Assembly: GCA_963758155.1 (NCBI GenBank)
Contig: CAVWUP010000019.1
Span: 6,720 to 70,719, forward strand
From: an uncultured delta proteobacterium
GTDB lineage: Bacteria > Myxococcota_A > Polyangia > Fen-1088
Direction of reading: 5' to 3'
Length of the DNA stretch: 64,000 nt
Shown here: positions 20,251-55,799 of the stretch, in pieces
Layout: every line of letters starts with the position of its first letter
Position numbering within the stretch: the stretch's first letter is position 1
Position numbers and translations under genes: made by a program
Notes under the pieces: generated by a model
Told to the model about the DNA's origin: nothing
What the model saw: the letters and a program-made list of their open reading frames with translations, nothing else
Database searches by the model: none

Positions 20251-23382
<3,132 letters not shown>

Positions 23383-23385
23383 TGA

Positions 23386-24411: not shown

Positions 24412-25811
24412 AGGGCGCGGCCTTCGAGAGGGTTTTGCTGGCCGATGGCGCGGGCCAGGTTGGACTGGGCGATGAGGTAGTCGTAGCTGGCGGCCTGCAA
24501 CTGGCCGCGCGCGGTGGTGAGCTGGTTTTCCGCGTCGAGCACGTCGAACGAAGTGTTGTCCGTGCTTTCGTAGCGTTTCTGTTCGATGCGGAAGTTTTCT
24601 TCGGCCTGCTCGACGGCATGGCGGGCGACCGCCAGGGCTTCAGCCGCCGTGGTCACGTTGACGTGGGCGCTGCGCGTTTCCAGGCGGATGGCATTTTCGG
24701 CCTTGCGCCGGGCGGCCAGGGCCTGGGCCAGGCGCGCCTTGGCTTCGTCGATTCCATAATAGGTACCGCCGCCTTCCCAGATGTCCCAGGACGCGGTGGC
24801 GCCGATGAACCAGATGTCCTGCTTGGGGGCGAAAATCGTGGCCGGCGACGAGTGGGTGTAGTTCGCCACAGCGTTCACCTGGGGCAGCATCTTCGACTTG
24901 GCCAGGCTCTCGGCTGCGCGGGCCTGCTCGGTCTGGGCCGCGATTTCCTTCATCTCCAATCGGTCAGCCACAGCGCGATCTTCGGCTTGCGCGGCGGGAA
25001 TCACGGGCCCGATGGTCACGTCCGCGATCGAATCCGTGGGCTCGATGGCCGCGTCGGGGGCCAGTCCCATCAGCGTCGCCAGGCGGCCACGCGCCAGAAC
25101 CACGGCGCCGTTGGCCTGGATGAGGCGCTGCTGGGCCGCGGCCAGGCCGAGTTCGGCGCGGAGCACATCGTTGCGGCCCACGGTTCCTGCTCGGTAGAAA
25201 GATTGCGCGCGCTTGACCTGCGCGTCGATGTTCTCGACCGACTTTTGCGCCACATCGACCAGACGCATGGCCTGCAGAACGCGGTAGTAGGCCTCGGTCA
25301 CCTGGAAGGCGACGTCGCGGCGGGTGGCTTTGCGTTGCAGCCCAGCCAGGTCCACGCCCATCTTGCGCAGGGCATAGCCCTCATTGATGGTCCACAGCGA
25401 GGCGATCGGTTGCGCGACTGTGAAAGATGCCGACCAGGTGGTTTGCGCGCGGAATTCAATAGTCTTGTCGAGGTCCGACTGGATCGGCAGTTGCGGATTG
25501 TTCGGGTCGCGAATAGTTCTCCACCCACACGTCGGGCAAACTTGGAACACAGGACCGAACAGGTTCGCACCGAGCGGACTGTCCCATCTCTGGATGCCCG
25601 CATCGAGGTGCAGCCGCGGTCCGAAGGCGCCGCGCGCGCTATTCTTCTGCGCGGTCGTCGCGTCCACCTCCAGGTTTGCGCTGGCGATGTCGGGATTGCC
25701 CTGCAAGGCCACATCAATACACTTGGCCAGGGTCATGGGTTCAGCGGCCGCAGTCCCGACTGCCAACAGCGACAGCGCGAACACCGTGATGGTAATCTTT
25801 GTGGCCCTCAT
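24408..25811 (-). CDS. TolC-like outer membrane efflux protein (OMF family)
   Basis: Signal MRATKITITVFALSLLAVGTAAA. Tandem coiled-coil/beta-barrel repeats characteristic of OMF. Overlaps the TetR stop (coupled). Confidence 0.85.
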   Translation of the reverse strand: MRATKITITVFALSLLAVGTAAAEPMTLAKCIDVALQGNPDIASANLEVDATTAQKNSARGAFGPRLHLDAGIQRWDSPLGANLFGPVFQVCPTCGWRTIRDPNNPQLPIQSDLDKTIEFRAQTTWSASFTVAQPIASLWTINEGYALRKMGVDLAGLQRKATRRDVAFQVTEAYYRVLQAMRLVDVAQKSVENIDAQVKRAQSFYRAGTVGRNDVLRAELGLAAAQQRLIQANGAVVLARGRLATLMGLAPDAAIEPTDSIADVTIGPVIPAAQAEDRAVADRLEMKEIAAQTEQARAAESLAKSKMLPQVNAVANYTHSSPATIFAPKQDIWFIGATASWDIWEGGGTYYGIDEAKARLAQALAARRKAENAIRLETRSAHVNVTTAAEALAVARHAVEQAEENFRIEQKRYESTDNTSFDVLDAENQLTTARGQLQAASYDYLIAQSNLARAIGQQNPLEGRAL

Positions 25812-26549: not shown

Positions 26550-27110
26550 GTGCCGGGCCACCCAATCGGCCGCCGACGTTGTAAAGTGCGGACGTCCGCC
26601 GTGTCATGCGCTCGCCGAAGATCCGTCCTGCTCATCGCCGCCGTGGCTTTGTTCTCCGGCGTCGCGGCTGCGCGTCGTGGTCCCGCCGTGGGCACGCGAC
26701 CGCCCCTGCCCATGAGCCACAAGCGCCACATGGAAAAGGATATGAGGTGCCGAGCCTGCCACCAGGGCGTGGAGGGCGAGGCCATGGCGTCGTTTCCGAC
26801 GCTGGCCGATTGCATGGACTGCCACAAGACGCCGCAGGGCCAGGAGCCCGCCGAGCCCGAGGTGCGCGCCCTGGCGGCCCACGGGCAAGAAGTCTTGTGG
26901 GTGCGACGCAACCACTTGGCCGGGCATGTGTACTTTTCGCACGCGGCGCACGTGACCTTGGCTCACATGAAATGCGAGGATTGTCATCGCGACATGCGCA
27001 CGATGGATCGCGCCTTGACCGAGCCCGACGTACACCAGGACATGCGGGCCTGCGTCGCCTGTCATCGCGCCAAACACGCCAGCCTGGACTGCCTGGCCTG
27101 CCACAAGTGA
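26550..27110 (+). CDS. periplasmic pentaheme c-type cytochrome (ActA/NrfB-like size class)
   Basis: Five CxxCH motifs: CRACH, CMDCH, CEDCH, CVACH, CLACH. The signal peptide is RRRSVLLIAAVALFSGVAAA. The start is ATG 26550 or one of two in-frame GTGs. Confidence 0.8.
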   Translation: MPGHPIGRRRCKVRTSAVSCARRRSVLLIAAVALFSGVAAARRGPAVGTRPPLPMSHKRHMEKDMRCRACHQGVEGEAMASFPTLADCMDCHKTPQGQEPAEPEVRALAAHGQEVLWVRRNHLAGHVYFSHAAHVTLAHMKCEDCHRDMRTMDRALTEPDVHQDMRACVACHRAKHASLDCLACHK

Positions 27111-27113
27111 TGC

Positions 27114-29342
27114 ATGAGTCGATTCGGCCGACGTGAACTTCTGGGTGGCGCTGCGCTGGCGGGCGCCGCGGCTTGGGGCTGTCGCCCGGGCAAGGATCGC
27201 TACCGCATCGACAAGCCGCCGCTGCCAGGCAGCCGTCCCGGCGAGGAGCGCTGGGTTCTCTCCACCTGCGCCCTGTGCAACGCGGGTTGCGGGATCAAGG
27301 TGCGCGTGGTGGAGGGCAGGGCGGTCAAGATCGAAGGCAACCCGGATCACCCGGTGAACCGCGGCGGTCTGTGCAGCCGCGGCCAGGCGGCGCTGCAGGC
27401 GCTGTACAACTCGCAGCGCGTGCATGCGCCCCTGCGGCGGCTGGGCGATCGCGGTGACGGTTCGTGGAAGCTGATTTCGTGGGACGAAGCCATCGGTGAA
27501 ATCGTGACCAAGCTGGGCAAGCTGCGCGCCGCTGGCCATCCCGAACGGCTGGTGTTGATCGACGGCGAAGCAGGCACGTTCACCCACGTGCTTTGGACGC
27601 GTTTCCTGTCGGCGTTCGGCAGCCCGAACCACATTGGAATGGGATCGGCTCGCGCCGCGGGCGTCAAGTTGGCCAGCCTCTACACGACGGGCAGTTACGG
27701 TCTGCCCGCGCACGATCTGGCCCGGGCGCGGGTCGTGCTGGCCTTTGGTGCGGAACAGATCGAATCGTCGGGCCAGACCATGCAGTTCATGCGCGCGGCC
27801 AGCGCGTTTGAGCGCCCACGCGTGATCTGCGTGTCGCCGCGCCGGCCGAGCTGCCGTTGCGATGAATGGATCCCGATTGCGCCCGGAACCTACGGCGCGC
27901 TGGCGTTGTCACTGACCCATGTGCTGGTTCGCGATGGCCTCATCGACCGGGACTTCGTCCGCGATTTCGTCTCAGGCTTTTCCACGGGGCGCGACCGAGC
28001 CGGTGTCGAGCAGCCAGGATTCGAGGCGTTGGTTCGCGCGGGGTATGCGCCGGACAGGACACAAGAAGTGACGGGCATTCCGGCAGCCACAGTCGAGCGG
28101 CTGGCGCACGATCTCGCAAAACAGCGCCCCGTGGTAGTTACCGGCGACGGTAGCGCAACGGCGGCGAGCAATGGACTGGCCACGGGTATGTCCATCGCTG
28201 CGCTCAATGTGCTGCTGGGAAACTCGGACCAAGGCGGAGTCGCGGGACCGCGTGAGATCGCTGTTCCGAAATGGGAGGCGCCCATTGTCGATGCGGTCGC
28301 AGCCGCCGGCAGCTCGGCCCCACGCATCGACGGCGCAGGCACGGCGGCTTGCCCGCTGGGGCGCGGTCGCGTGCAAGCCGTTCCCGCGGCCATCACACAG
28401 TCCAGTCCCTATCCCGTCGAGGCGCTGTTTCTGCACGGCACAGATCCGCTGGCCGCGCTGCCAGGACGGAAGGCCTGGCATACGGCGCTCCAGCGAGTGC
28501 CTTTCTTGGTGCGATTCGCCTCGTGGCTCGACGACAGCGCCCGCGGGGCGGACCTGGTGTTGCCCGAGTCTCTGCCTCTCGAGGCATTGGACATAGTCCA
28601 GCTCGCGGCGGATTCGGGCGAGCCCATGCTCAGCTTGCGCCAGCCCGTGGTGGCGCCCTTGTCAGGCACGCGGCAGGCGGGCGACGTCATTGTCGCTCTT
28701 GCTGCTGGACTTGGCGGATCAGTCGGCCGCTCGCTGCCGTGGAAGAGCTACGCAGACGCTGTGGCAAAATCGCTGTCAGCGGAAACCTTGGCTGACATGA
28801 AAGGAAAGGGCGGCCAGTGGAACGAGGCCAAGACCGACCTGCCTCCGCGCAAGTTCGAGATCGGCTCGCAGGCGATCGCGTCGCGCATGGCCGGCTTTCC
28901 CGACGCTGCGATGGCAGCACAGGCCTGGCCGTGCAAGGGATTGCCCCCCTGGGAGCCGCCCCGATTTTCCGGCGACCCGCGAAGGTTCCCCTTGCAACTT
29001 GTCCCTTACCGGCCGGTTCAGTTTGTCGAAGATGGCGGGCCGTTTTTGTCTTGGCTAGGTGAGCTGCCGCTGGTCTCGGGCAATCCATGGCCGCTGCGCG
29101 CGGAGATCAATCCTGCCGATGCTGCGCGCCTCGGTGTGGCCGACGGAGACCAGGTGCTGGTTCAATCTTCGATTGGCACCTGCCCGGCCATCGCGCAGGT
29201 CAGCGACGGTGTCTGCGTGGGCGCGGTGGCCATGGCCTTGGGCCCGGGCGGGGTTGCCGATCTGGTGGTGTCCGACGAAGACCGCTGGTCAGGCGTGCTG
29301 GCCTGGCAAGGCACGCGCGTGCGCGTGAAGAAGATGTCATGA
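27114..29342 (+). CDS. TAT-exported molybdopterin (Mo/W-bisPGD) oxidoreductase-family large subunit (PsrA/QrcB/ActB1-like)
   Basis: Twin-arginine signal MSRFGRRELLGGAALAGAAAWG. N-terminal 4Fe-4S motif CALCNAGC...C. 742 aa. The stop overlaps the next ATG (ATGA). Confidence 0.85.
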   Translation: MSRFGRRELLGGAALAGAAAWGCRPGKDRYRIDKPPLPGSRPGEERWVLSTCALCNAGCGIKVRVVEGRAVKIEGNPDHPVNRGGLCSRGQAALQALYNSQRVHAPLRRLGDRGDGSWKLISWDEAIGEIVTKLGKLRAAGHPERLVLIDGEAGTFTHVLWTRFLSAFGSPNHIGMGSARAAGVKLASLYTTGSYGLPAHDLARARVVLAFGAEQIESSGQTMQFMRAASAFERPRVICVSPRRPSCRCDEWIPIAPGTYGALALSLTHVLVRDGLIDRDFVRDFVSGFSTGRDRAGVEQPGFEALVRAGYAPDRTQEVTGIPAATVERLAHDLAKQRPVVVTGDGSATAASNGLATGMSIAALNVLLGNSDQGGVAGPREIAVPKWEAPIVDAVAAAGSSAPRIDGAGTAACPLGRGRVQAVPAAITQSSPYPVEALFLHGTDPLAALPGRKAWHTALQRVPFLVRFASWLDDSARGADLVLPESLPLEALDIVQLAADSGEPMLSLRQPVVAPLSGTRQAGDVIVALAAGLGGSVGRSLPWKSYADAVAKSLSAETLADMKGKGGQWNEAKTDLPPRKFEIGSQAIASRMAGFPDAAMAAQAWPCKGLPPWEPPRFSGDPRRFPLQLVPYRPVQFVEDGGPFLSWLGELPLVSGNPWPLRAEINPADAARLGVADGDQVLVQSSIGTCPAIAQVSDGVCVGAVAMALGPGGVADLVVSDEDRWSGVLAWQGTRVRVKKMS

Positions 29343-30164
29343 AGCGCGGCCCATCCGACGACGACATGCGCGACTCGCGACGCAAGCTCTTGGCAGGGCT
29401 GGCCGCCTCGGCCGCGGGCGCAATGGTGGGTTGCGCGCGCGCGGTGGCTGCAGCCGAGCGCACTGCCGGTTCACGCGGCCGACGGACATCGCCGCCAGTG
29501 GGGCCTGGTCATCGATCTCGACCGCTGCGCCCGTTGTGCCGGGTGCGTGGTGGCTTGCCAGCAAGAGAACAACGTCGCGCCCGCTGGCCCGCGCGTCGCG
29601 GCCCGCACGCGCCCGATCCACTGGATGGATTTTTTGCCGCCCGCGCCGGGAAGCTGTGCCGCCACTCCCATTCCCTGCATGCACTGCCAGGACCCGCCCT
29701 GCGTGAAGGTTTGCCCGGTGGGCGCGACCTACCAGACCGACGAAGGAATCACAGCGCAGGTCTGGGACCGTTGTATTGGCTGTCGCTATTGCATGGTGGC
29801 CTGTCCCTATGCGCGCCGCTATTTCAATTGGAGCGAGCCCGACTGGCCCGGCCAAGATCTGAGCAGCCTCAATCCCGACGTGGCCCCGCGGCCGCGCGGC
29901 GTGGTGGAAAAGTGCACCTTGTGCCACCACCGCATTCGCGCTGCGCTCGAGCGCGCGCGTCTCGACGAGGAACCGCTCACCGACGAAGCCTTGCACCGGC
30001 TGCCGGCTTGCGCCCAGTCCTGTCCGACCCAGGCCATCACTTTCGGTGACTTGGCTGAGCCCACATCCGAGGTGGCACGCCTGGCCGTGAGTCCGCGCGC
30101 CATGCGACTGCTTCCCGAGGCTGGCACGCGGCCCAAGGTCATCTACTTGCGGGAGAGCACGTGA
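29339..30164 (+). CDS. 4Fe-4S ferredoxin-type electron-transfer subunit (NrfC/PsrB/QrcC/ActB2-like) with an apparent +1 frame discontinuity near 29465-29490
   Basis: Frame 2 from ATG 29339 gives a TAT-type signal MKRGPSDDDMRDSRRKLLAGLAASAAGAMVGCARAVAAAER. Frame 0 from ~29487 gives HRRQWGLVIDLDRCARCAGCVVAC plus three more Cys clusters (CMHCQDPPCVKVCP, CIGCRYCMVACP, CTLCHHRIRA...C). Frame 0 has no start codon before the first ferredoxin motif. Confidence 0.7.
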
Positions 30165-31603
30165 AGGTTCGACAATCCCTTTTGCTTCTCACGGCGCTGT
30201 TCACCGTCGGCGCCTACGCCTGGGTTCAGCAGGTCCTTCAGGGCGGCGATGTGGTCATGGACCTGCACACCATCGGGGCGGGCGGCGTGGCGTGGGGCTT
30301 GTATGTCGTGGGCGATGGCTTCTTCGCCAGCACGGCGCTGGCCATCTTGGCCGTGGCGTGCGTGTTGCGCGTGCTGCGACTGCGGGGCATGGAAAACGTC
30401 TCGCGGATGGCGCTGTCTCTCGGGATCGCGGGCCTCGTGGCCTCGCTCGGCTGCGTGCTGGCTGATCTCGGCCGCCCGGAGGCCGCCATAATGAATCTGC
30501 CGCTGGTGGGGCGCCCACGCTCGCCGTTCTTCGGGACCTTCACCGCGGTGGCAGGCGCGTCGCTCTTCGCGACGGTGGTGCACCTGGCGCTGACCAGCCG
30601 GCCGGCCTGGGCACAGCGGGCACAAAAAGGCGAGCGATGGGCGTGGGTGTGGCGGCTGCTGGCCTGCGGCTGGCACGAGACGGCGTCGGCGAAACAGCGT
30701 CGAGAGAGCGTCGACTTCTGGCTGTCGCTTGTCCTGCTGCCCTTTCTGTTGGCTGGCCTTGTGATTTTGGGGATCGTGTTTGGCGTGAGGGCTGCACGTC
30801 CGACGTGGCAAAGCGTATTCGAAGTTGTCACCTTCGTCGTGTCAGGGGGCGCGGCTGGGTGCAGTCTGTTGTTGCTGGCTGCGCACGGGTCCGGGCGGGC
30901 AAGCGTGTTCACGGCGCGCATGCTGGCGGTGTTCATTGGCGTGAGCGCGCTTCTCGTGGTCACGGGACAGATCCTGGCGCTGCGTACACCATATTTGTCC
31001 GTACATCGCTACGCACGGGCGCTGCTCGACGGGCCGTGGAGCAGGCTGTTCTGGGCGGAGGTGATTCTTCTCTTTTTGGCGGGGATCGTGAGTCTGGCCA
31101 TGGCCTGGCGGAAGAAGGTCCCATTGATTTTGGCGGCAACAACCGCACTGCTGGTGTGCGCGGCCGTGGCGCTTGAACGTTTTCTGGTGTTGGTGGCCTG
31201 GCAGACGCACGGTCTGGGGCTGTCTTGGCCGGCTGGCAAGTACAACCCGACATCGATCGAATGGTCGGTGCTGGTCGGGGTAGCAGCCGGATCTGCGCTC
31301 GTCTTTCTGTTTCTGATCAAGGTTTGTCGCGCCGAAACCGGCGACGCGGCCGAGCCCGCCAGCCCCGAGCCCGCTGGCCGCCGACTTCGCTGGCTCGTCA
31401 CCGTGGCCTGCCTGATTCTGGGCTTCGCCGTCGCCGCTTCGGGTTTGGCATTGTCCGCCGGTTTCGCCAGCGCGCCATTCCTCGATCCGATCTTGCCCGG
31501 CGGCCCGCTGGTTTTCCTCGCCGGTCTGTTCCTGATGGGCCTGGCCGCAGTCGCCTACGAACTGATTCCGGATGGGGAAGTCGCTAGCGGCGCCAAGATC
31601 TGA
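30161..31603 (+). CDS. NrfD/PsrC-family polytopic membrane quinone-interacting subunit (ActC/QrcD-like)
   Basis: GTG 30161 overlaps the FeS gene stop (GTGA). A 480-aa protein with about 10-12 TM segments and the usual position in Mo/FeS/NrfD operons. Confidence 0.8.
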   Translation: MKVRQSLLLLTALFTVGAYAWVQQVLQGGDVVMDLHTIGAGGVAWGLYVVGDGFFASTALAILAVACVLRVLRLRGMENVSRMALSLGIAGLVASLGCVLADLGRPEAAIMNLPLVGRPRSPFFGTFTAVAGASLFATVVHLALTSRPAWAQRAQKGERWAWVWRLLACGWHETASAKQRRESVDFWLSLVLLPFLLAGLVILGIVFGVRAARPTWQSVFEVVTFVVSGGAAGCSLLLLAAHGSGRASVFTARMLAVFIGVSALLVVTGQILALRTPYLSVHRYARALLDGPWSRLFWAEVILLFLAGIVSLAMAWRKKVPLILAATTALLVCAAVALERFLVLVAWQTHGLGLSWPAGKYNPTSIEWSVLVGVAAGSALVFLFLIKVCRAETGDAAEPASPEPAGRRLRWLVTVACLILGFAVAASGLALSAGFASAPFLDPILPGGPLVFLAGLFLMGLAAVAYELIPDGEVASGAKI

Positions 31604-31716: not shown

Positions 31717-32934
31717 TCACCGCGCTCGGATCTCGCCGACCTGCTGCCCTGATTCGTGCGTGATGTACCCGCCCACGGTGTCGAGTTCGCGCCGAAAAGT
31801 TCTGCCGCCCAGCATATCGACCAGGCGCTCGACTCTCGGGTCGGTCGCCAAGGTACGGGGGATCACGAGGTCGAAGCGTTCCACGGCGAGCGGAATGAAT
31901 CCCAGCCCAAAGGCCGCCGCAGCGCTGCGAATGGCGATTCCCGCGTCGGCTGCGCCCATGGCAATCGCTTGTGCGACCTCCATGTGTCCAAGGGCCACGC
32001 CCGCGCTGCCGGGCACGGATGCGGGAGGTACTTTTCTTGATCTCATCGCTTGTTCGAGCAGCTTGTTCGCTCCTGCGCCGGGCTCGCGTTGGATCAGGCG
32101 GATTCTACGATGGATAAGATCTTCCGCGCCTCGGATTCCCAGCGGATTGCCAGGTCGAACGACGATTCCCTGTTCCCAGGATGCGAAGTTGACGAACAGC
32201 ATCGCGCGGCCTGGCAGCGCGCGCCGAACGAACGGGATATTGAATTCCTTCGTCGCCTCGTCGCACAGGTGAAGGCCGGCGACATGGACCTCGCCTCGCG
32301 CGAGGGCCTCGAGCGCGGCCATGCTTGAGCCTTGAACCCAGGAGATGTGAATCCCTGCCGGCTCCTGGCCGAGCCTTGCCGCCAGCATCCCCAGCGCCGG
32401 CGCGCATCCCATGACGACCAGTCGCCGGCGGACAGTCTCGATGTCACCCAGGGGCTCGACTCGCACCGTTCGCGGGCTGGCACGGCGCCGTGGCCAAGGA
32501 ACCACCAGGCCATCGGCGGCGCGGGAAGATGACTCGCTGCGCCGCGGGTCGATGGGATGCGCGATCAAGCGCCCGTCTATCTCGGCCAGGGAAACCCGGG
32601 GGCTGTTCGACTCAAACGCCCAGAGGCTTTCAGCCAAAGTTGCATCGAGCGGCTCCGGCGGAACGTTGAGACAAAAGAGAGACTCGATCCGACAGCCGAG
32701 AACATGGGCGAGGCGGAGTGCAACGTCGGTGCCAGGGACCACGCGGCCACTCTCCAAGCCGCACAGACTTTGTCGTGACAGGCCGACCTTCTTCGCGAGC
32801 TGAAGCTGGCTCAGCCCGCGGGCCAGCCGGAACTCCTTCAGCGAGGAGCGAAGCGCGGGAGGCCTGACCGCGGGGCATGTGTCGCGCCGACCTGACACCA
32901 AGTCAAAGATGCTTGCGCCGTGGCGAAACGTCAA
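31717..32934 (-). CDS. transcriptional regulator with N-terminal XRE-type HTH and C-terminal periplasmic-binding-protein-like (PBP-like, TunR/ModE-like oxyanion-sensing) domain
   Basis: HTH LKEFRLARGLSQLQLAKKVGLSRQSLCGLESGRVVPGTDVALRLAHVLGCRIESLF. The C-terminal domain resembles ModA-like binding folds. It is convergent with the Mo-enzyme operon. Confidence 0.7.
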   Translation of the reverse strand: MTFRHGASIFDLVSGRRDTCPAVRPPALRSSLKEFRLARGLSQLQLAKKVGLSRQSLCGLESGRVVPGTDVALRLAHVLGCRIESLFCLNVPPEPLDATLAESLWAFESNSPRVSLAEIDGRLIAHPIDPRRSESSSRAADGLVVPWPRRRASPRTVRVEPLGDIETVRRRLVVMGCAPALGMLAARLGQEPAGIHISWVQGSSMAALEALARGEVHVAGLHLCDEATKEFNIPFVRRALPGRAMLFVNFASWEQGIVVRPGNPLGIRGAEDLIHRRIRLIQREPGAGANKLLEQAMRSRKVPPASVPGSAGVALGHMEVAQAIAMGAADAGIAIRSAAAAFGLGFIPLAVERFDLVIPRTLATDPRVERLVDMLGGRTFRRELDTVGGYITHESGQQVGEIRAR

Positions 32935-33115
32935 CTACTTTTGTTAGCACAGACTTGGCACCATGCCCCGGGTTGCAACGTTTGGGACGAAAGATGAGCC
33001 GCCTCGGTGGATTCCCGTCACTACAAGGGAGAGGCTTCCACCCGAGACTTGACCCACCCGGCACTCAGCCATGAATAGGTTCGGTCAGCCGTCCGCTTGC
33101 TAGAAGGAGTATTTC

Positions 33116-34885
33116 ATGAAGAACCAACGACGGGATTTCCTCAAGATCACGGCCGCGGGGGCGGCGGGATTGGCGCTGGCACGAGCGGACAAAGTATTCG
33201 CGGCATGGCCGACCACCGGCACCTTGGCGGTGAATCCCACCATCGACAACATGCGCGTCGTGGCCTGCGTCGACACGAAGATGCTGAAGACCGCCCTGAC
33301 CTCGATGACCTTCGCCGCGGAAAACGCGGCTGTTGACACGGCCCGCGTGCAGGCGAACATGGACGCCATGGCCATGCAACTGGCCAACCAGACCACCGCC
33401 GATGCGGCGTGGAAAGCCATTTTCAGGTCAAGCAAGGCGTGGAATGCCACGAAGGTCGCCATCAAGATAAATACAATTGAGCCCAAGAACCAGGCACGCA
33501 TAGCGGTCGTTCAGAAATTCTGTGAGCTCTTCTTGGGCTTTGGCGTGCTGCCGGCAAACATCATCGTCTATGACGGAAATACGACCTATGCCAAGCAGAT
33601 GGTCACTGATTACTCTCCGTATTTCAGCCTGACCGACACCACCAAGATCCAGGCCGTGGTCAGCAGTTTCAATGATTCACTGGGGGGCACGATAAACGCT
33701 GCCATTCCGGGCGGGAATCCCGCAACCGCGGCCTGCACTGCGGACATCGCCAATGGCACGATCGACATTCTGGTCAACATCGCAAACAACAAGGGCCACA
33801 CTGAAATGGGTGGGGCCACGCTGAGCATGAAGAACCACTTTGGCACTTTTGCTCCCAATCACGGTGCCAGCCCGGCCTATATCTTCAACATCAACAAGAG
33901 CGACGCCATTCTCGGGGGAACCCCCGTGCGGCAGCAATTGTGCTTTATCGATTCGATCGTCGCCAACAAGGCCTCGAATACGGGAACTCCAGAAGTGGCG
34001 CCCTGCTATCTCATCATGGGCGTGTTCGGTCCCGCGGTGGACTATCTGACCGTCAAGAAGGTCCGCGAGGCGGTCATGAATTGCACCCATGATGAGACGA
34101 TCATCAGCTCGTACATGACGACCTTCGGGTACGCGACAACCGACCCGGTGTGGGTTGTGGCGCCGCCCGCTGATGGCACAACCAGCGCCGATGCAGGCGC
34201 AGGCGGGGCAGGAGGCTCGGGCGGCGCGGGCGGCAGTGGCGGGACCAGCGGATCCGGCGGAGCGAGCGGTGGCGGGAGCAGCGGGGCCGGAGGAACGCGC
34301 ACCGGCGGGACCAGTGGGTCTGCCGGCGCCAGTGGCGGCGGGACCAGCGGGAGCGGGGGAGCACGCCCTGGCGGATCCAGCGGGTCGGGCGGCGCAGGCA
34401 ATGGCGGCAACAGCGCGACCGGTGGTGCGAGCGCAGGCGGCGGCAGCAGCGCGACCGGCGGTGCGACCGCAGGCGGCGGCGGCAGTGGGGCTGGAGGCGT
34501 GGCCAGCGGCGGGACGAGCGCGCCGGGGAGCACAGGCAGCGGAGGTGCCATTGCCACCGGCGGCGCGAACGCCAGCTCTGGCGCGTCGGGCGGCGGTGCC
34601 GGCGGCGGCGCCACCAGCGCTCCGCTGGCGTCCGGGGGCTCGACCGCGACAGGCGGGACGAAGGCCGCGGGCGGGACGACGGTGAGCGCGCTGGGCGGCA
34701 GTGGCGGCAGCCGCGAAACTGCCGGGGCGGGCACGACCAATGTCACCGGCGGCAACTCGTCAGGCGGCTGCAGTGTGGCCGGCGCCGAGAGCAGGACCAC
34801 CCGCTGGGGGGCGATGCTGGCGCTCGGCACAGTGGTGGCGGCCAAACTTCGGCGTCTGGTGGGCGGCGACGATCAGTCGTCGTGA
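33116..34885 (+). CDS. TAT-signal secreted protein of unknown function (possibly DUF362-like) with a long Gly/Ser/Ala linker and a MYXO-CTERM-type C-terminal anchor
   Basis: MKNQRRDFLKITAAGAAGLALARA twin-arginine signal. A ~330-aa globular domain is followed by a ~190-aa (S/T)GG(A/S)G repeat region. The C-terminus is GGCSVAGAE...AMLALGTVVAAKLRRLVGG. Confidence 0.65.
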   Translation: MKNQRRDFLKITAAGAAGLALARADKVFAAWPTTGTLAVNPTIDNMRVVACVDTKMLKTALTSMTFAAENAAVDTARVQANMDAMAMQLANQTTADAAWKAIFRSSKAWNATKVAIKINTIEPKNQARIAVVQKFCELFLGFGVLPANIIVYDGNTTYAKQMVTDYSPYFSLTDTTKIQAVVSSFNDSLGGTINAAIPGGNPATAACTADIANGTIDILVNIANNKGHTEMGGATLSMKNHFGTFAPNHGASPAYIFNINKSDAILGGTPVRQQLCFIDSIVANKASNTGTPEVAPCYLIMGVFGPAVDYLTVKKVREAVMNCTHDETIISSYMTTFGYATTDPVWVVAPPADGTTSADAGAGGAGGSGGAGGSGGTSGSGGASGGGSSGAGGTRTGGTSGSAGASGGGTSGSGGARPGGSSGSGGAGNGGNSATGGASAGGGSSATGGATAGGGGSGAGGVASGGTSAPGSTGSGGAIATGGANASSGASGGGAGGGATSAPLASGGSTATGGTKAAGGTTVSALGGSGGSRETAGAGTTNVTGGNSSGGCSVAGAESRTTRWGAMLALGTVVAAKLRRLVGGDDQSS

Positions 34886-35051: not shown

Positions 35052-35621
35052 ATGCAAATCAGAACCTCGATCGCTTTCTTTGTTTTTGGATGTCTGTTCT
35101 TGGTTGCAGGCAGCTCAGGCTGCGGCAGCAGTCCCAGCAGCCCCGCCGTCGATCCGGCGGCCTTTGCCAAGAAATACAAAATTGCCGACAATCAAATTCA
35201 GAACTGGACGCAGGATCCGAGCACGGATCCAAGCGCCAACTGGAGCGGCACGGACCTGGTTTCGTCGGGGATCGACGGCGGCAACGAGCGCTATGACAGC
35301 AGGGGGTTCAAGCAGGGACTGTTCCAGACTCTCGATGGTCCGAGTCAGCAACAATGCAACTTCCGCGCGATGGATTTCGGCACCGATGCCAACGCCACCA
35401 CCATGTTCACGTATTCTGTGCAGGGCGCTGGTGCCACTGTTCCCGTTCCACCTTTCGACATATCGGTTGCGGCTGGGGAGGCGGTGATGGGTGGCGCCAC
35501 GGTGTTTGCCCATTTCAAGGCATCGTACTTCGAGGTGTACATGACAGGGTATGCTGATACCGCTTCGGCAATCGCAGACTCAGCGCCATTCCTGACAGTG
35601 TTTCAGACAGATACCAACTAG
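35052..35621 (+). CDS. hypothetical lipoprotein
   Basis: ATG 35052 follows AAAGGA. The signal MQIRTSIAFFVFGCLFLVAGSSGC has a lipobox. Confidence 0.5.
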   Translation: MQIRTSIAFFVFGCLFLVAGSSGCGSSPSSPAVDPAAFAKKYKIADNQIQNWTQDPSTDPSANWSGTDLVSSGIDGGNERYDSRGFKQGLFQTLDGPSQQQCNFRAMDFGTDANATTMFTYSVQGAGATVPVPPFDISVAAGEAVMGGATVFAHFKASYFEVYMTGYADTASAIADSAPFLTVFQTDTN

Positions 35622-35762: not shown

Positions 35763-36930
35763 ATGACGGCTGGGTTCGGGAATGCTTCCGGCATGGACAC
35801 CCGGGTTCGAACCGCGGTCAAGGCCATGCGGCTTAGGCTCGAGATGCAGCAGCGGGATTTGGCCAAGGCTGTTGCCGTCAGTCGACAGACGCTCAGTTCG
35901 ATCGAGGCGGGCGAGACGGTTCCATCCACGCAGATCGCCCTGGCGCTGGCGCGCGAGCTGCGCTGCCGAGTAGAGGATCTCTTCAGTCTGCGTGGCGATG
36001 GACAGGTGCTCGAAGCCGAGTTCGTGCCTGAGGCGGATCGCAGTCCCGGCGATGGGCACAAGACGCGGGTGTCGCTGGGCTGGGTGGGTGAGCGCTGGGT
36101 CGCACGCTTGCTGGAAACCGACGAGGCTTTGGCGCTTGGCACTCCGGCCGACGGAATCGCGACGCTGTCAAAGGGAAAGGGCAAGTGGACCAAGCGCGCG
36201 TCCGTCCCCTTCGCGATCTGGAATCTCTTCATCGCAATCTTCTGGTCGCGGGCTGCGATCCCGCGCTCGGCTTGCTGGGGCGCCATCTGGAGGAGCGTTT
36301 CCACGGTCCTCGGTTGCATTGGATCGAGAAGGCAAGTCGGCCCGCGCTGGAGGAACTGGCGTTGGGGCGGGTGCACTTCGCCGGGATGCACCTTCTGGGC
36401 GAGGGCGGGGTGGGCGAGAACGTGGTTGCCGTTCGTGAAAGGTTTGGCAGCGAGCCCATGGTGCTGGTGACGCTGGCTTCATGGGAACAGGGCTTCGTCA
36501 GTCGGCCGGGATATCGGTACAAGAGCGCGGCGGACTTGGAACGGAAAGGCACGCGTGTAATCGCGCGAGAAGCGGGCGCGGGCGCGCAGGAGCTGCTGGA
36601 AAGCGTCTGTTTCGCAAGGCGGGCCGAAAGTTCAAGAACGTGGCGCCGGTGGCGATGGCGCGCGGGCATCGCGCGGTGGCGCAGATGGTGGCCATGGGGG
36701 TGGGCGACGTCGGCGTGGCCACGCGCTCGGCGGCGGCGAGCTTTGGCTTGCACTTCGAGCCGCTGGCAGAGGCTTGCTTTGATTTGGTCTTTCCGGCGGC
36801 GCTCGCCTCGGACGGTCGCGTGCAGGCGTTGCTCGATTGTCTGTCTGATGGGCGTTTTCGCCAGGATCTGGGGGGCATGACCGGCTATCGAACCGTACGC
36901 ACAGGACAGGCTTTCACAGGGCGCACAAGC
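35763..36930 (+). pseudogene. frame-disrupted paralog of the HTH-XRE + PBP-like regulator at 31717-32934
   Basis: Homology to the intact regulator continues across three reading frames. The HTH part is in frame 0 (35763-~36200), the middle part in frame 2 (~36200-36600) and the C-terminal part in frame 1 (~36600-36930). The junctions fall in GC-rich/homopolymer tracts. Confidence 0.55.
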
Positions 36931-37732
36931 ATGAATCGTCGCGGGCTCGTTCTCGCAGGCATGGTGGCCGTCTGTCTCAATGCACGCCGTTCCTTGCAAT
37001 GCAGCGCGCGAGGCAAGTCGAGCGCAGGAACTGGTGGTGTTTGCGGCGGCATCGCTGCGTGAGGTCTTTCAGAGCGTCGCACTGATTTTCGAGAAGCAAC
37101 ACCCGAATACGAAGGTCCGTTTCAACTTCGCGGGCAGCCAGGACCTACGCGTGCAGATCGAGCAAGGCGCCAAGGTTGACGTGTTCGCCTCGGCCGACTG
37201 GAAGCACATGAAGCTTCTGGCAACCCAGAAACTGGTCAGCGGCCCCGCGGTCTTTGCGCGCAATTTGCCGGTGTTGGTCGTGCCCAAGAACAACCCCGCC
37301 CAGGTGCGCAGCTTTGCGGATCTACCAACAGTCGCGCACCTGGTGATCGGCGCGCCCGAGGTGCCGATCGGTGCCTACACTGAAACGATTTTCGCAGCGG
37401 CGGAAAAGCTTTACGGCAAGGCCTTCCACGAACGGATCCTGGCGCGGGTGCGCTCGCGCGAGCTGAATGTGCGCCAGGTATTGACCAAGGTCGCGCTGGG
37501 CGAGGCCGACGCGGGCATCGTGTACAAGACCGATGCGCTGACCATGCCCGACAAGGTCCAGATCATCGAGATTCCCACTGAGATCAACCTGGTGGCCGAG
37601 TATCCCATCGCGGTCTTGAGCGCGGCGCCTCACTCCGAGCAGGCGCGCGCGTTCGTGAAACTGGTCTTGTCCAAGGAAGGGCAGAAGACGTTGGCCGCGG
37701 CGGGCTTCAGCAAAGTCGACGGAGCGAAGTGA
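36931..37732 (+). CDS. modA: molybdate/tungstate ABC transporter periplasmic substrate-binding protein ModA (signal peptide and mature domain in different frames)
   Basis: The mature domain carries ModA motifs ELVVFAAASL, VDVFASAD, GEADAGIVYKTDA and YPIAVLSAAPHSEQARAFVKLVLS. The signal peptide MNRRGLVLAGMVAVCL starts at ATG 36931 and is in another frame, so there is a +1 discontinuity near 36990-37020. Confidence 0.75.
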
Positions 37733-37747
37733 GGCAAGCGACTTCTT

Positions 37748-38560
37748 ATGCCAGAAGTCGTCGTCTCTACGACGCGGCCATGGTCGGGACTGGGCGGCGT
37801 GCTGTTGCTGTTTCTCGTGCTGCCCTTCGTGGCCCTGGTTTTCGATGGCGGACCCGAGGCCATCTGGCGCGGTCTCGGCTGCTCTTTGACCTGGCCCGCA
37901 CTGCGACTCAGCCTTGGGACGACGCTGGTATCGGTTGTGCTGGTGGTCGTGGGAGGCACGCCGCTGGCTTGGTGGCTGGCGCGTTCGCGCTGGCGTTCGG
38001 CGCGTTGGCTGGAGATCCTATTGCAGCTTCCGGTGGTGATTCCGCCGGCGGTGGGCGGCATCGCGCTGCTGCTGGCGTTTGGTCGGCGCGGGCTGTTTGG
38101 CGGAACCCTGGAGCGTCTCGGCTGGACGCCGGCCTTCAGCGCCGTCGCAGTTGTCATGGCCCAGGTCTTCGTGTCGGCCCCGTTCTACTTGCAAGCTGCG
38201 GTACAGGCCTTTGGCCCGTTGAACCCCAATTTGCTGGCCGTGGCGCGCAGCCTGGGCGCTTCGCCGCCGCGCCTGCTTTTGCGGGTGGCCTTGCCCCTGG
38301 CGCGCCCCTGGCTGATTGGTGGGGCCGCCATGAGCTGGGCACGCGCATTGGGGGAATTCGGTGCCACCTTGATGTTCGCCGGGAACATGACGGGCAAGAC
38401 CCAGACTCTGCCCCTGGCCATTTACACCGCATTGGAACTCGACATTCACACCGCGCAGGCCTTGTCGCTCTTATTGGTTTCGTTTGCCTTTGCCCTGTTG
38501 CTCTTTCTCCGGCGCTTTAATCGCGATCCCGAGGTCGCGCGCAGGCTGGCCACGCAATGA
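37748..38560 (+). CDS. modB: molybdate ABC transporter permease ModB
   Basis: CysTW-family signature RSLGASPPRLLLRVALPLARPWLIGGAAMSWARALGEFGATLMFAGN, with six TM segments. Confidence 0.85.
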   Translation: MPEVVVSTTRPWSGLGGVLLLFLVLPFVALVFDGGPEAIWRGLGCSLTWPALRLSLGTTLVSVVLVVVGGTPLAWWLARSRWRSARWLEILLQLPVVIPPAVGGIALLLAFGRRGLFGGTLERLGWTPAFSAVAVVMAQVFVSAPFYLQAAVQAFGPLNPNLLAVARSLGASPPRLLLRVALPLARPWLIGGAAMSWARALGEFGATLMFAGNMTGKTQTLPLAIYTALELDIHTAQALSLLLVSFAFALLLFLRRFNRDPEVARRLATQ

Positions 38561-39357
38561 CCGGCGCCTCAGTTGCGCGATTGTCTGTCGCGGTTGAAGC
38601 CGTGTTGGGAACATTTGTGCTCCAGGTCTCACTCGAGGTTGGTGCTGAGCCGCTGGCCCTGGTTGGTACCAACGGTTCGGGCAAGACCAGCTTGCTTCTG
38701 ACTATCTTGGGGCTGCGCAATCCCGCGCGCGGCCGCATCGTGCTTTGCGACGAGGTTCTTTTCGACGCCGAGACGGCCGTCGACCTTCCCACAGAAGAAC
38801 GCCACTTGGCATATTTGCCGCAGGACTTTGGCTTGTTTCCCCACCTGAGTGCGGTCGAAAACGTGGCCTTTGCCCTGGCATGCCGGTCACAGCGGCTGAG
38901 CGCAAGACAACGTCGCGACGAGGCCATGACCTGGCTGGAGCGCTTTGGAATCGGCCAGCTGGCGAAGCGAAACCCGGCGCGACTCTCCGGCGGCGAACGG
39001 CAGCGGGTCGCGCTGGCACGGGCTTTGGCGTCGTCTCCCAAGGCGCTTCTGCTCGACGAGCCCACGGCATCGCTGGACGTCGAGGCCCGTGTCGAGGTGC
39101 GCGCCTTTTTGGCTGAATCCATCCGCGCGCTCGGCTTGCCCACCATCCTGGTCACCCACGACGCCAAGGATGTCGAGGCCCTGGCCAGCCGCGTGGCGGT
39201 GCTCGAGAACGGGCGGGTTGCCGGTTGCGGCGTGCTGGGCGACATCCGGCAAAACCCACCGACGTCGTTTGCCAGCAAGCTGTTCGACTCGTCGAGAGTT
39301 CCGGGCGTAGGCGCAATCGCCAGCCCCTCTTGTGGTGGAGACGTTTCTCACAACTGA
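38557..39357 (+). CDS. modC: ABC transporter ATP-binding protein of the mod operon (ModC-like, no C-terminal TOBE domain)
   Basis: Walker A GTNGSGKTSLL, signature LSGGERQRVALARAL and Walker B LLLDEPTASLD. The start overlaps the modB stop. Confidence 0.8.
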   Translation: MTGASVARLSVAVEAVLGTFVLQVSLEVGAEPLALVGTNGSGKTSLLLTILGLRNPARGRIVLCDEVLFDAETAVDLPTEERHLAYLPQDFGLFPHLSAVENVAFALACRSQRLSARQRRDEAMTWLERFGIGQLAKRNPARLSGGERQRVALARALASSPKALLLDEPTASLDVEARVEVRAFLAESIRALGLPTILVTHDAKDVEALASRVAVLENGRVAGCGVLGDIRQNPPTSFASKLFDSSRVPGVGAIASPSCGGDVSHN

Positions 39358-39374: not shown

Positions 39375-41063
39375 ATGGCAACGTGCTTCGTCCTTAGAAT
39401 TCGATCCGCTCTTGCCTGTTTGTCTTCTTTGGCCTTCGCGGCCGCCCTGTCTGGATGCGGGAGTTCATCGGTATCCAAACCCGCAGATGCCGCCACGGAC
39501 ACATTGGCCATTGCCGACACAGCCAATCCCAACCTGGGCCGGGACACTGCCCAACCCGACACCGCAGTCGACATGGCGCTCTCTCCCGATACTGTTTCCA
39601 GTCCGGGGTTGGACGCATCCGACACCGGCGGCACAGTCGACGCGGGAGGCGTTGTCGACGCGCCCATCGCCACTGGCGGATTGGACGCGCCCACCGCGGA
39701 CGTCCCGGCCGACGGAGTCGGTGATGGCGGCGACGGAGGCAGCGACAGCGGCTCGTTGGCGGACGGCGGGGGCGGCGACGCCGGTCCTACCACCGCTTGT
39801 TCGTCGCTCGTGAATCCGCTGTACATAATGACGGGCGACACGCAGGTGCCAGTGCTGAAGACCCTGGGCAAAGCCTTGCGGCAAAACTCAGCGAATCCCA
39901 TCACGCTGGTTTGGTTCGCAACTGGCTCTTGCACCATCATCGACGCTGTCTACAACGGCACTCCGCTGACCCAGATCCCGTCCTACATCCCGAGCGATCC
40001 CACCTGGGATGACACCACGGGCGCAGTACCGACCTGTGCCTTGGAAAGCGGCGGGCGCAGCGTGGACATCGGCATTCCCATCGTGTTCCCCGCAGCCTGC
40101 TCGACCGCCACTCCGCCTGCCAACTTGGGCGCATTCAAGGGTCCGGTGCAGTCGATGCTCTTCGTGGTGCCCAAGTCGGCTTCGCCCATGGCCATCAGCT
40201 CACAACAGGCAGCCCTGGTCTTCGGTACAGGCGCCACGGCCAACATCGCGCCCTGGACCGACGAGAATTTCTACTTCATTCGCCCACCCACCAAGGGCGT
40301 GGAGGTGAGCCTTGGCGCCCTGATCGGTGTGGCACCGGCGCTGTGGCATGGGAAGCAAATCAGCGCTTCCAACGATGTCGCCACCGACGTGGCCACCTCG
40401 GTGCAGCCTGACAAGACCATCGGAATTCTTGGCAGCGAGACATACGACAGCACAACCAACCGGGCCAATCTCAAGGCGCTGGCTTTCCAGGCCGTGAATC
40501 AGACCAACGGCTATCTTCCCGATTCCACCGCAACGGCCTTCGACAAGCGAAGTCTTCGCGAGGGGCACTATGTCGCCTGGGCGCATGTCTTCTACTTGAC
40601 CAAGGTGACCTCAACCGACGCAGGCGTGTCCGTTCCAGTCAACGCCAACGCCAAGCTGTTCATCGACATTCTCACCAACACAGCCGATTCCGGCATTCCG
40701 TCCACGCTGGATCCAGTGGCGCTCGTGGCGAAGAAAGGAATCGTTCCTCTGTGCGCCATGACGGTGACCCGCTCCGTCGAAGGTGGCCCTCTTTCACTCT
40801 CCGCGCCGCCTGATCCTTGCGGCTGCTACTTCGAGAAAACGCTCGGCACCGGTACGGTTCCCACGTCCTGCGTGGCCTGTACCACAAGCGCGTCTTGCAC
40901 GGGTGGCACCACCTGCCGCCATGGCTACTGCGAAGCTGACGATGGCCGCACCTCACTCAGCGATTGCAGCGCTCTCGCCAGCGGCGCCACGTACGCTCAG
41001 ATCATCAACAATACCTGCACCGCTGGGGCGCGCTTTCAGGCCGACAACATTCCCAATCCGTGA
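39375..41063 (+). CDS. lipoprotein with Asp/Gly/Thr-rich linker, a possible periplasmic-binding-like domain and a Cys-rich C-terminus
   Basis: Signal with lipobox AAALSGC. The central region ITLVWFATGSCTIIDAVYNG resembles a binding-protein fold. The C-terminus is a myxobacterial-type Cys cluster SCVACTTSASCTGGTTCRHGYC. Confidence 0.55.
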   Translation: MATCFVLRIRSALACLSSLAFAAALSGCGSSSVSKPADAATDTLAIADTANPNLGRDTAQPDTAVDMALSPDTVSSPGLDASDTGGTVDAGGVVDAPIATGGLDAPTADVPADGVGDGGDGGSDSGSLADGGGGDAGPTTACSSLVNPLYIMTGDTQVPVLKTLGKALRQNSANPITLVWFATGSCTIIDAVYNGTPLTQIPSYIPSDPTWDDTTGAVPTCALESGGRSVDIGIPIVFPAACSTATPPANLGAFKGPVQSMLFVVPKSASPMAISSQQAALVFGTGATANIAPWTDENFYFIRPPTKGVEVSLGALIGVAPALWHGKQISASNDVATDVATSVQPDKTIGILGSETYDSTTNRANLKALAFQAVNQTNGYLPDSTATAFDKRSLREGHYVAWAHVFYLTKVTSTDAGVSVPVNANAKLFIDILTNTADSGIPSTLDPVALVAKKGIVPLCAMTVTRSVEGGPLSLSAPPDPCGCYFEKTLGTGTVPTSCVACTTSASCTGGTTCRHGYCEADDGRTSLSDCSALASGATYAQIINNTCTAGARFQADNIPNP

Positions 41064-42357
41064 AGACGCGCATTGGCCGGTTGAGTTTGGGCGGGCTCTT
41101 TTTGGTCGGGGCGGTGCACACTGCCCTGGCCGAGGAGGCGCCTGCGCCAGCTCAACCGGCGGTGGCGACCAGTTCGGCGGGCCGTCTGAGTGTAGGAGAG
41201 ACCACTCTGACGGTTGGAGGGTTTGTGCAAGCAGACGCCGTGCTGATGGACCAGTCCTCGCAGGATCAGCTCTCCCCCTCTGGGGGCGAGCCTCTCAATA
41301 CGGAACGGCTTCTCATTCGCCGTGGACACCTCTTCGTCGAAGCCAGCCGAAGAATTCCTTCGCGCGGCGGTCGAGCTGGACGCGAATACGGTCAAAGGCA
41401 TGGCGGTCGGATTGGCGCGGGCCGAGCTGGCCGCGGGCCAGACGCGGCCGCAGTGGAACTGGGAACTTGCCCTTGGCCTCGTTCGCATTCCATTCGGACT
41501 TGAAGTTCAGGAATGGGATCCCGATCGTTTCTTTCTGGAGCGCAGCAACGTCAGCCGCGCGCTCTTTCCCGGCACATTTGACTTGGGTGCGCGCGCACAA
41601 ATTGGCTGGCGATTCTTGCGTGCGCAAATGGCGGTCATGAATGGCAACCCACTGGGGGACGCATCTTTCCCGGCCCGCGATCCCAATGCGGCCAAGGATT
41701 TTGTGGGAAGGATGGGAATGGATGCCACCATCGCGGCCAAGGTCCATGTCACCGCTGGCGTTTCTTCGCTGAAGGGCACCGGGATTTCATCCCGGCACGC
41801 CCGCGACCAAGAACGTCCTGGTGTGGAACGACCAGAACGAAGACGGTATTGTCCAACTCAGCGAGATCCAGATCATTCCCGGCCGCGCGGCCACGCCATC
41901 GCAGAATTTCTCGCGCTTCGCCGTGGGGGCAGACAGTCGCATCAGCTTCGCGATTCCCCGCTTGGGTACCTCGGTGGTCTTCGGCGAAGTGGTTTGGGGC
42001 GCCAATCTGGATCGCGGGCTGCAGCCCGCCGATCCCGTTGCATCTGGTCGCGACTTGCGGGAATTCGGCTGGGTTGTGGGTGTCAGCCAGGAATTCACGC
42101 CATGGGTTGGGTTCGGCGCTCGCTACGACTTCTACAACCCGGACGTGGATGCCTCTCGGCAAACACCCACGGTTCTGGTGCCCAAAGATGTGTCCTTTCG
42201 CACCTGGACCTTCACGCTCTCGTTGGGCGGCTTTGCTCACAATCGTTTGGCTCTCGAATTCCAACATAATCGCAATGCGCTGGGCGTGGCTTCCGATGGA
42301 TCGCCGACGACCCTGGCCGCGGACACGCTGACCTTGCGCGGGCAGATGGTCTTCTGA
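41060..42357 (+). CDS. outer-membrane beta-barrel porin (phosphate-selective porin O/P-like) interrupted by two frame discontinuities
   Basis: GTG 41060 overlaps the upstream stop (GTGA). The signal is MKTRIGRLSLGGLFLVGAVHTALA. Beta-strand-rich sequence continues in frame 2 (to ~41330), frame 0 (~41330-41790) and frame 1 (~41790-42357), ending in the OMP-typical C-terminal TLRGQMVF. Confidence 0.55.
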
Positions 42358-55716: not shown

Positions 55717-55799
55717 GAATTTCCGCCATTGTGCCCCCGGAAAGCGCCGTTGTCAGTAGTGTACAATCTCCTGATTCCCATCCAGCCACTGGAGACGAC

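Follow-up and report, generated by a model that had tools for sequence, protein, structure and literature searches.

A DUF362-like protein of a Polyangia genome with a Tat signal, a glycine-rich stalk and a MYXO-CTERM-like tail

The gene at positions 33116-34885 (+ strand) of a 64,000-nucleotide stretch of contig CAVWUP010000019.1 (hereafter the window) encodes a 589-amino-acid protein. It combines a twin-arginine translocation (Tat) signal, a DUF362-like globular domain, a glycine-rich stalk and a C-terminal tail resembling the MYXO-CTERM sorting tags. The nearest genomes place the host in the Myxococcales/Polyangia. As far as topology and pathway are concerned, this is probably an enzyme-like surface protein that is exported by Tat, routed by a myxosortase and a type II secretion system (T2SS), and tethered to the cell by its stalk.

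Under this model, the domain would already be folded in the cytoplasm, probably with a metal or an organic cofactor built in, when it crosses the inner membrane via Tat. The C-terminal hydrophobic segment would hold the protein in the inner membrane, with its Arg pair on the cytoplasmic side. Cys552 would then be lipidated, a myxosortase (a CPBP protease of the MrtX type) would trim the tail, and the T2SS would carry the protein to the outer leaflet of the outer membrane. There the stalk of about 190 residues would let the catalytic domain reach substrates away from the cell. The lipoprotein encoded by the next gene, which has a predicted PknH-sensor-like ligand-binding fold, may act with the enzyme, for instance as a docking site or a substrate binder. 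The published model for MYXO-CTERM proteins proposes that they are lipidated at the Cys, cleaved by the CPBP protease MrtX and, once folded, delivered to the surface by the T2SS (PMC11980579). A Tat-exported, pre-folded passenger fits this published route.

The open reading frame (ORF) starts with ATG and lies exactly where the earlier note on this DNA had placed it. Its product has 509 homologues with the same layout, so it represents a real gene and not a chance ORF. Public databases label the family members hypothetical or "DUF362 domain-containing", and an exact-sequence look-up of the protein in the protein collection returned no entry. A tblastn search of the window with the globular domain found no paralogue, the gene itself being the sole match. 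Two antisense ORFs, 33100-33501 (-) and 34042-34845 (-), have a high GC content at third codon positions (GC3) and are both preferred by GC3-based gene calling. The second has a Pro-rich translation, the complement of the Gly-rich linker codons. We reject both as compositional artefacts, as it is the + strand gene that has the homologues.

The N-terminus is a predicted Tat signal of the consensus type and is conserved in the family. It reads MKNQRRDFLKITAAGAAGLALARADKVFA followed by AW, with the consensus RRxFLK, a mildly hydrophobic h-region (ITAAGAAGLALA), a basic c-region (RADK) and a cleavage site between VFA and A. The Pfam TAT_signal model (PF10518) matches at 24.1 bits, passing its gathering score of 22.7. 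A second model, TIGR01409, gives 13.8 bits, under its cutoff of 16.7, and is passed by five of ten tested homologues. R5 and R6 are invariant in the family alignment (A1), and the RR pair is retained in 92% of 142 subfamily members from two phyla, the set on which our conservation figures are based. The motif is also found in 121 of the 147 best representatives, most of the others being truncated sequences. In the AlphaFold2 (AF2) model the signal stretch has a predicted local distance difference test score (pLDDT) of less than 50, as signal peptides usually do. With a profile match above cutoff, a consensus motif and conservation of the RR pair, the Tat signal proposed in the earlier note holds.

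By profile and predicted fold, the globular domain is a compact, divergent DUF362 subfamily in Pfam clan CL0471. The earlier note had guessed at a DUF362-like domain and proposed a hidden Markov model (HMM) search, and the guess was right: DUF362 (PF04015) matches residues 114-248 at 37 bits, against a gathering cutoff of 24. A precomputed PF04015 match is also present in most homologues. An NCBIfam scan gave no model for the domain. One phmmer and two profile searches against the PDB returned noise or low-complexity matches only, with no DUF362 structure detectable by sequence. The AF2 model of the domain, built on 63 sequences, has a pLDDT of 88.7 and a predicted template-modelling score (pTM) of 0.88, with disorder confined to the signal peptide. 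The top five Foldseek matches in the PDB are all LarA-family nickel-pincer-nucleotide (NPN) enzymes (9q3k, 9eia, 9eid, 7s91), ranging from E = 2e-4 and probability 1.0 for the best to E = 0.18 and probability 0.47. At E <= 0.01, LarA-family enzymes alone match the fold in the PDB. These matches agree with the composition of the clan, which holds both DUF362 and DUF2088/LarA (PMC11770544).

Conservation within the subfamily points to a functional site. At least 90% of the members retain D53, D83, K107, K117, N119, K134, D153, D217, N221, K226, H228, K239, N240, H241, Q273, Q274, D279 and D309, and this constellation of Asp, Lys, His, Asn and Gln looks like a catalytic or cofactor site. When A1 is aligned by hhalign with the canonical Tat-DUF362 proteins (alignment A3), D217, K226, H228, K239, H249 and D279 pair with the invariant D180, K189, H191, K201, H220 and D238 of the latter. 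The earlier note had described the displayed domain as "redox-type" and suggested a look at its Cys and His patterns. No Cys is invariant: the best-conserved positions, C136, C207 and C276, are kept in only about 80-83% of members, and C51 in 65%. An obligate iron-sulfur (Fe-S) or redox centre is thus unsupported. Since the conserved residues suggest a catalytic or cofactor-type site, and since the fold relatives are the LarA racemases and epimerases, the redox label is not established.

LarA itself binds its NPN cofactor through Arg75, Lys184 and His200, with His108 and His174 as catalytic residues. The His-x(10-11)-Lys spacing of our protein resembles that of LarA (11 residues from H228 to K239 vs 10 from H174 to K184), a tentative lead that concerns spacing only. 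None of LarB, LarC and LarE is among the ORFs annotated in the window.

Between the domain and the tail lies the stalk, which the earlier note had described as a 190-residue (S/T)GGxG linker. The linker is real, at 189 residues, but the literal motif occurs in it only twice; "GG[AST]", found 21 times, is a better description, and "[ST]GG" occurs 17 times. The 189 residues include 80 Gly, 35 Ala, 34 Ser and 21 Thr, and the underlying DNA consists of imperfect 33/66-nt repeats, as detected by Tandem Repeats Finder. Linker length varies from 80 to 206 residues across 56 homologues, and differs by 22-44 residues even between the near-identical homologues P0007/P0008, P0012/P0013 and P0040/P0041. 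Together with the DNA repeats, this variability indicates that the stalk expands and contracts. A disordered region beside the tag is usual in MYXO-CTERM proteins (PMC11980579).

The tail is laid out in three parts (a Cys motif, a hydrophobic segment and an Arg pair), as MYXO-CTERM tags are, and the host belongs to the Myxococcota. It runs from GNSSGG-C552 through an 11-residue spacer to a hydrophobic segment of 13 residues (W564-A576), then K577-L-R-R580 and nine residues that end in DDQSS. This last extension is acidic and is followed directly by the stop codon. Nearly all of the tail-bearing members that we examined have a Gly-Cys or GCGC motif, set 10-15 residues ahead of the hydrophobic segment. 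The MYXO-CTERM model TIGR03901 matches the isolated tail with 16.9 bits (E = 0.006) over positions 2-31 of the 34 in the profile, and this is the only sorting-signal match that the tail has; a scan of the whole protein with TIGR03901 gave no match.

A second protein in the window is built along the same lines. This Kelch beta-propeller protein of 1128 amino acids (7915-11301, - strand) has a Gly-rich repeat linker (GGVTGYGGATGSGG...) and a tail in which GCTC is followed by a hydrophobic segment and RRIRRRR. Its tail shows the textbook layout at the extreme C-terminus, and TIGR03901 gives it only 16.5 bits. A Gly-rich stalk joined to a MYXO-CTERM-like tail is therefore no peculiarity of our protein; to judge from the shared architecture, this host evidently uses such a cassette more generally.

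The distribution of the family offers a further comparison. An exhaustive search of 1.84 billion representatives (E <= 1e-3, clustering at 50% identity) found only 318 clusters, which makes this a compact subfamily. The Tat signal, domain, linker and "GC..hydrophobic..RRL" tail occur together in about 100 clusters. The Myxococcota group consists of Myxococcales/Polyangia metagenome-assembled genomes, many of them from fen and peat, whose proteins have the Gly-rich linker and the Cys/hydrophobic/RRL tail. A Fibrobacterota group (Chitinivibrionales, Chitinispirillaceae, Fibrobacter) has proteins of about 460-490 residues. These retain the RR signal and carry, in place of linker and tail, a FlgD-Ig or type A C-terminal domain of the type IX secretion system (T9SS). 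A few members come from Planctomycetota and Desulfobacterota. The pairing of a Tat signal with a T9SS type A or FlgD-Ig domain was seen in P0055, P0061 and P0122-P0264 (loci L015, L005 and L027-L076). P0055 passes the T9SS model TIGR04183 at 25.6 vs 23 bits, and the others reach 19-21. In the literature we found Tat combined with T9SS mentioned generically only, with no discussion of Tat-exported T9SS cargo.

The Fibrobacterota orthologues thus swap the tail for a T9SS domain, so the passenger appears to carry whichever outer-membrane sorting tag its host uses. This predicted exchange of tags supports a cell-surface destination more strongly than any other indirect evidence we have, and it gives the surface display suggested in the earlier note an independent footing. 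The T9SS-tailed proteins on Chitinivibrionales contigs of about 50% GC (L015, L005) show about 70% identity with the Myxococcota domain. For Myxococcales loci, the GC content of the domain lies 4-7 points under that of the locus (L007 and L023 compared); the window has 0.582 for the domain, 0.567 for the partner gene and 0.637 for the locus. Identity and GC content together suggest transfer across phyla with an exchange of the sorting tag. Tandem or nearby DUF362-like paralogues are common, with 2-4 copies per locus (L001-L003, L012, L007 and many Fibrobacterota loci). In loci of the P0049 type (L001-L003, L012) the gene stands in two tandem copies, and no partner lipoprotein gene lies closer than 10 kb.

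The DUF362-like gene and the lipoprotein gene next to it form a conserved two-gene module. Its adjacency, on which the earlier note was silent, is new and is the most informative part of the genomic context. The partner ORF has its real start at 35052, and its product has 34 homologues. Its signal peptide and lipobox are conserved in alignment A2. An HMM of the partner finds a copy within a few hundred base pairs of the DUF362-like gene in 44 of 85 loci, in both phyla and with the strand shared in almost every case. In the window the two genes are not separated by a terminator-like site, and they are probably co-transcribed. Two partner homologues pass the 27-bit cutoff of PF20244 (DUF6599), namely P0297 (34.2 bits) and P0295 (29.3 bits); P0289 fails it (21.8 bits), and the copy in the window gives no match at the gathering threshold. 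The relationship to DUF6599, a family on which we found no paper, is thus distant and based on transitive homology. The AF2 model of the partner has a pLDDT of 85. In fold it comes closest to the extracellular sensor domain of PknH from mycobacteria and to the TiME lipoprotein (probability 0.96-1.0, TM-score 0.38-0.47).

In Fibrobacterota the pair often sits within a larger cluster, which also encodes a membrane polyferredoxin of about 500 residues with many Fer4 domains including Fer4_5, a canonical Tat-DUF362 protein (313 residues, 131.7 bits) and a protein of about 1180 residues. The last has no Pfam match and an aromatic C-terminal residue, and is possibly an outer-membrane protein. Such clusters were seen at L005, L028, L030-L032, L034, L047, L055, L060 and L076, with 1-3 copies of the surface-directed DUF362-like protein. 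A Polyangiaceae locus (L021) has the polyferredoxin and a canonical DUF362 gene nearby. None of the polyferredoxin, canonical Tat-DUF362 and 1180-residue genes is present in the window.

Several observations weigh against the model of a stalked surface enzyme. The tail stays under the 20-bit cutoff that defines formal membership of TIGR03901, and the tails of ten diverse homologues score 7-18.5 bits or nothing, none of them passing. Canonical tags have no hydrophilic extension after the Arg pair, which here is nine residues long and reaches about 45 in relatives. A scan of the window for CPBP motifs, itself a weak test, found no myxosortase-like ORF, and no Tat genes were identified in the 64 kb. 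The only secretion-related match there is a T2SSE-family ATPase at 788-2293 (Pfam, 10 more ORFs). The PF04015 match to the globular domain spans only profile positions 1-130 of 200, and the alignment with canonical Tat-DUF362 proteins reaches 50.6% probability (E = 1.6e-4) over 64 columns. Over about 230 columns the matches to LarA reach only low TM-scores (0.32-0.34), and the partner's fold match is moderate, at a TM-score of 0.47. Tat may also be used for reasons of fast folding or oligomerisation. Thus the layout of the MYXO-CTERM-like anchor described in the earlier note is present and the tag model is its sole sorting-signal match, but the score lies below cutoff. The note had named absence of a match to that model as the result that would count against the anchor, and the outcome is borderline, with matches below cutoff at best, here as in the ten homologue tails. 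The textbook-looking tail of the Kelch protein scores much like this one, which suggests that TIGR03901 under-scores this lineage and that its cutoff is conservative.

The shortfall in score would fit a periplasmic alternative, in which a Tat-dependent, tail-anchored protein keeps its anchor in the inner membrane, the domain roams the periplasm on its linker and the outer membrane is never crossed. The Tat-exported, tail-anchored small subunits of E. coli hydrogenases and formate dehydrogenases provide a parallel. A hydrophobic segment with a basic pair fits such an anchor, no sorting enzyme was seen in the window, and a cytoplasmic extension of 9-45 residues that is conserved within subgroups would be unusual for a cleaved tag. 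Yet a plain anchor has no need of the Gly-Cys or GCGC motif that the family keeps, and the hydrophobic run is only 13 residues, about as in the cleaved tag of TraA. The T9SS export domain of the Fibrobacterota orthologues, together with the recurrence of the cassette in the Kelch protein, also speaks for a passage across the outer membrane, and we regard the periplasmic anchor as unlikely. If the protein does reach the surface, it might act there as a stalked adhesin or ligand-binding module and not as an enzyme. Most MYXO-CTERM proteins of Myxococcus xanthus are predicted adhesins or hydrolases (PMC11980579), the DUF362 profile match is partial, and the divergence from canonical DUF362 is strong. 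Such a role is quite improbable, given that about 18 polar residues are at least 90% conserved across two phyla, as is typical of catalysis or cofactor binding, that this set includes residues common to canonical DUF362, and that the Tat signal is strictly kept (RR in 92%), which argues for assembly before export.

The position of the gene raises a further possibility. As the earlier note had observed, it lies between a molybdenum (Mo) oxidoreductase operon (26550-31603) and modABC (36980-39357). The gene is flanked by two regulators with HTH_3 and PBP_like domains (TunR type), one divergent at 31717-32934 and the other 3' of the gene, with modABC following. The protein could thus belong to a molybdate/tungstate (Mo/W) regulon and serve Mo/W acquisition or the maturation of the neighbouring exported molybdoenzyme. 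The regulator recurs in 12 related loci and modABC in seven, and the link survives rearrangement in L004, with the regulator and a TOBE protein at a distance of 3-4 kb. All of these loci belong to Myxococcales relatives with at least 68% identity, however, and neither the more distant Myxococcota loci nor any Fibrobacterota locus has a Mo association. No gene of the Mo-oxidoreductase operon recurs beside any homologue, and the 181-bp upstream region holds no operator-like inverted repeat. We rejected a Mo/W regulatory link as the main explanation on these grounds and regard it as most improbable. Synteny of the lineage explains the pattern equally well, and the Mo neighbourhood, correctly located by the earlier note and kept only in close relatives, is probably coincidental.

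Returning to the stalked surface enzyme, our best guess, held with low confidence, is that its substrate is a small compound of the hydroxy-acid or sugar type, set free from polymers outside the cell. The guess draws on polysaccharide-degrading hosts, on the recurrence of glycoside hydrolase (GH) family 8 near the module (six loci, in both phyla) and on fusions of DUF362 with CBM9 and dockerin domains, one of them reported in Sorangium (PMC5742341). The GH2, GH18 and GH12 genes of the window fit a polysaccharide-degrading lifestyle.

In a more ambitious version of this model, which we consider rather unlikely, the protein would be the outermost part of an envelope-spanning enzyme system in anaerobic polymer degraders, with a LarA-clan domain that carries a cofactor made in the cytoplasm (nickel-pincer-like or another metal). 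Cytoplasmic assembly of the cofactor would explain the strict retention of the Tat signal, and the ligand-binding lipoprotein would sit beside the enzyme at the surface. In the fuller Fibrobacterota version, and at L021, the enzyme might be wired to the polyferredoxin, to the periplasmic canonical Tat-DUF362 protein and to the putative outer-membrane protein of about 1180 residues. If this is true, the system would allow redox or hydride chemistry to be carried out on extracellular substrates without heme.

Coordinates of the gene, its parts and its neighbours are collected in the table. Some neighbours merit a remark of their own. The TunR-like regulator at 35763-36880 (+) seems to be split by a frameshift, with HTH_3 in ORF 35763-36470 and PBP_like in ORF 36185-36880, which overlaps it. 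The regulator is intact in relatives (L001, L004), at 378 residues, and the window copy could be a pseudogene or an assembly error. The genes 3' of modABC (39375-45301, +) comprise one for a secreted protein of 562 residues without a Pfam match, two more ORFs, and one for a TonB-dependent receptor (43259-45301). Synteny with the mod locus is seen for the first three in L001, L007, L012 and L017. These genes may serve the uptake of Mo/W across the outer membrane. A divergent TetR gene and a resistance-nodulation-division (RND) efflux operon (20251-25811) lie 5' of the Mo operon, and none of these genes recurs beside homologues of our protein.

Table. Features of the gene, its product and its surroundings in the window
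Feature	Position	Strand	Basis or remark
Shine-Dalgarno sequence AGGAG	33105..33109	+	6 nt 5' of the ATG; seen in the sequence
Tat signal peptide, aa 1-29 (RRDFLK; predicted cleavage between VFA and A)	33116..33202	+	Pfam TAT_signal
DUF362-like (LarA-clan) domain, aa 30-356, about 325 aa	33203..34183	+	PF04015, AF2, Foldseek, conservation
Conserved residues of the domain	K117, N119, D153, D217, K226, H228, K239, N240, H241, Q273, Q274, D279, D309
Gly/Ser/Thr/Ala-rich low-complexity stalk, aa 357-545 (189 aa, 42% Gly)	34184..34750	+	Composition, Tandem Repeats Finder
MYXO-CTERM-like sorting tail, aa 546-589	34751..34885	+	TIGR03901 match below cutoff, hydropathy, homologue conservation
Partner gene, predicted lipoprotein of 189 aa (lipobox ..SSGC-GS), distant DUF6599	35052..35621	+	Homologues, alignment A2, AF2
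Psr/Phs-like operon: cytochrome c7-like protein, Tat-signal molybdopterin oxidoreductase (742 aa), probable Fe-S subunit, NrfD-type membrane subunit	26550-31603	+	
GH2	13962-17240	+	
GH18	55731-57335	+	
GH12	62012-63628	-	

The Tat signal, DUF362, the Gly-rich stalk and the MYXO-CTERM-type tag are each already known in kind. What is new is a surface-directed DUF362 subfamily, defined by its strict Tat signal, its lipoprotein partner, its exchange of tags between phyla and its larger cluster in Fibrobacterota. DUF362 is a widespread family of no known function, which the papers we found mention, as DUF362 or PF04015, only in passing. The subfamily offers a predicted address outside the cell, a likely need for folded export, a partner and about 18 residues to mutate, and the function of DUF362 thereby becomes experimentally approachable. 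The swap of tags shows, in a clean case from nature, that surface-sorting signals are modular, and suggests that cargo anchored by lipid or by a C-terminal domain may follow Tat-to-T2SS and Tat-to-T9SS routes. If a LarA-like cofactor is present, the protein would be the first extracellular member of its clan. As degraders the hosts are abundant in fen and peat, and on the same reading the activity may matter for carbon turnover there.

Among known systems, the canonical Tat-DUF362 proteins share with this protein a Tat signal, the K-x-N strand motif, the "K-G/S-H" motif with its following Lys, and two Asp. Our protein differs from them in its lack of a ferredoxin domain and in the outer-surface sorting module, the DUF6599-like lipoprotein partner and the separate, compact subfamily of 318 clusters at 50% identity that characterize it. 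The LarA/DUF2088 racemases and epimerases belong to the same clan and provide the fold matches, but their sequence identity to our protein is 8-14%, with TM-scores of 0.32-0.34, and LarA enzymes are cytoplasmic whereas this protein is predicted to be exported.

For the export route there are likewise partial precedents. The phospholipase PlcH of Pseudomonas aeruginosa is an enzyme that is exported by Tat and secreted by the T2SS, and it illustrates the two-step route after folding in the cytoplasm. PlcH and its like are released, lack a C-terminal lipid-anchoring tag and belong to unrelated enzyme families. The Fibrobacterota orthologues, as T9SS cargo with a type A domain, have the Tat signal, a globular domain up to about 70-74% identical and an adjoining partner lipoprotein. 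They differ in using another outer-membrane route and tag, in lacking the Gly-rich stalk and in often lying within a larger cluster.

The closest likeness in sorting is to the proteins of the MYXO-CTERM/MrtX/T2SS route, which in Myxococcus xanthus include TraA and MepA. For the M. xanthus set the description gives only N-terminal signal peptides (PMC11980579), unlike the Tat signal seen here, and our protein departs from it in its score below cutoff and in the nine-residue extension (up to 45 in relatives) after the basic residues. Shared with that route are the Gly-Cys motif, the spacer, the short hydrophobic segment and the Arg pair, as well as a Myxococcota host and a disordered region directly before the tag. 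In the tag of TraA, which has been studied experimentally, the spacer measures 13 residues and the hydrophobic run 12 (PMC11980579), close to the 11 and 13 residues of the tail described here.

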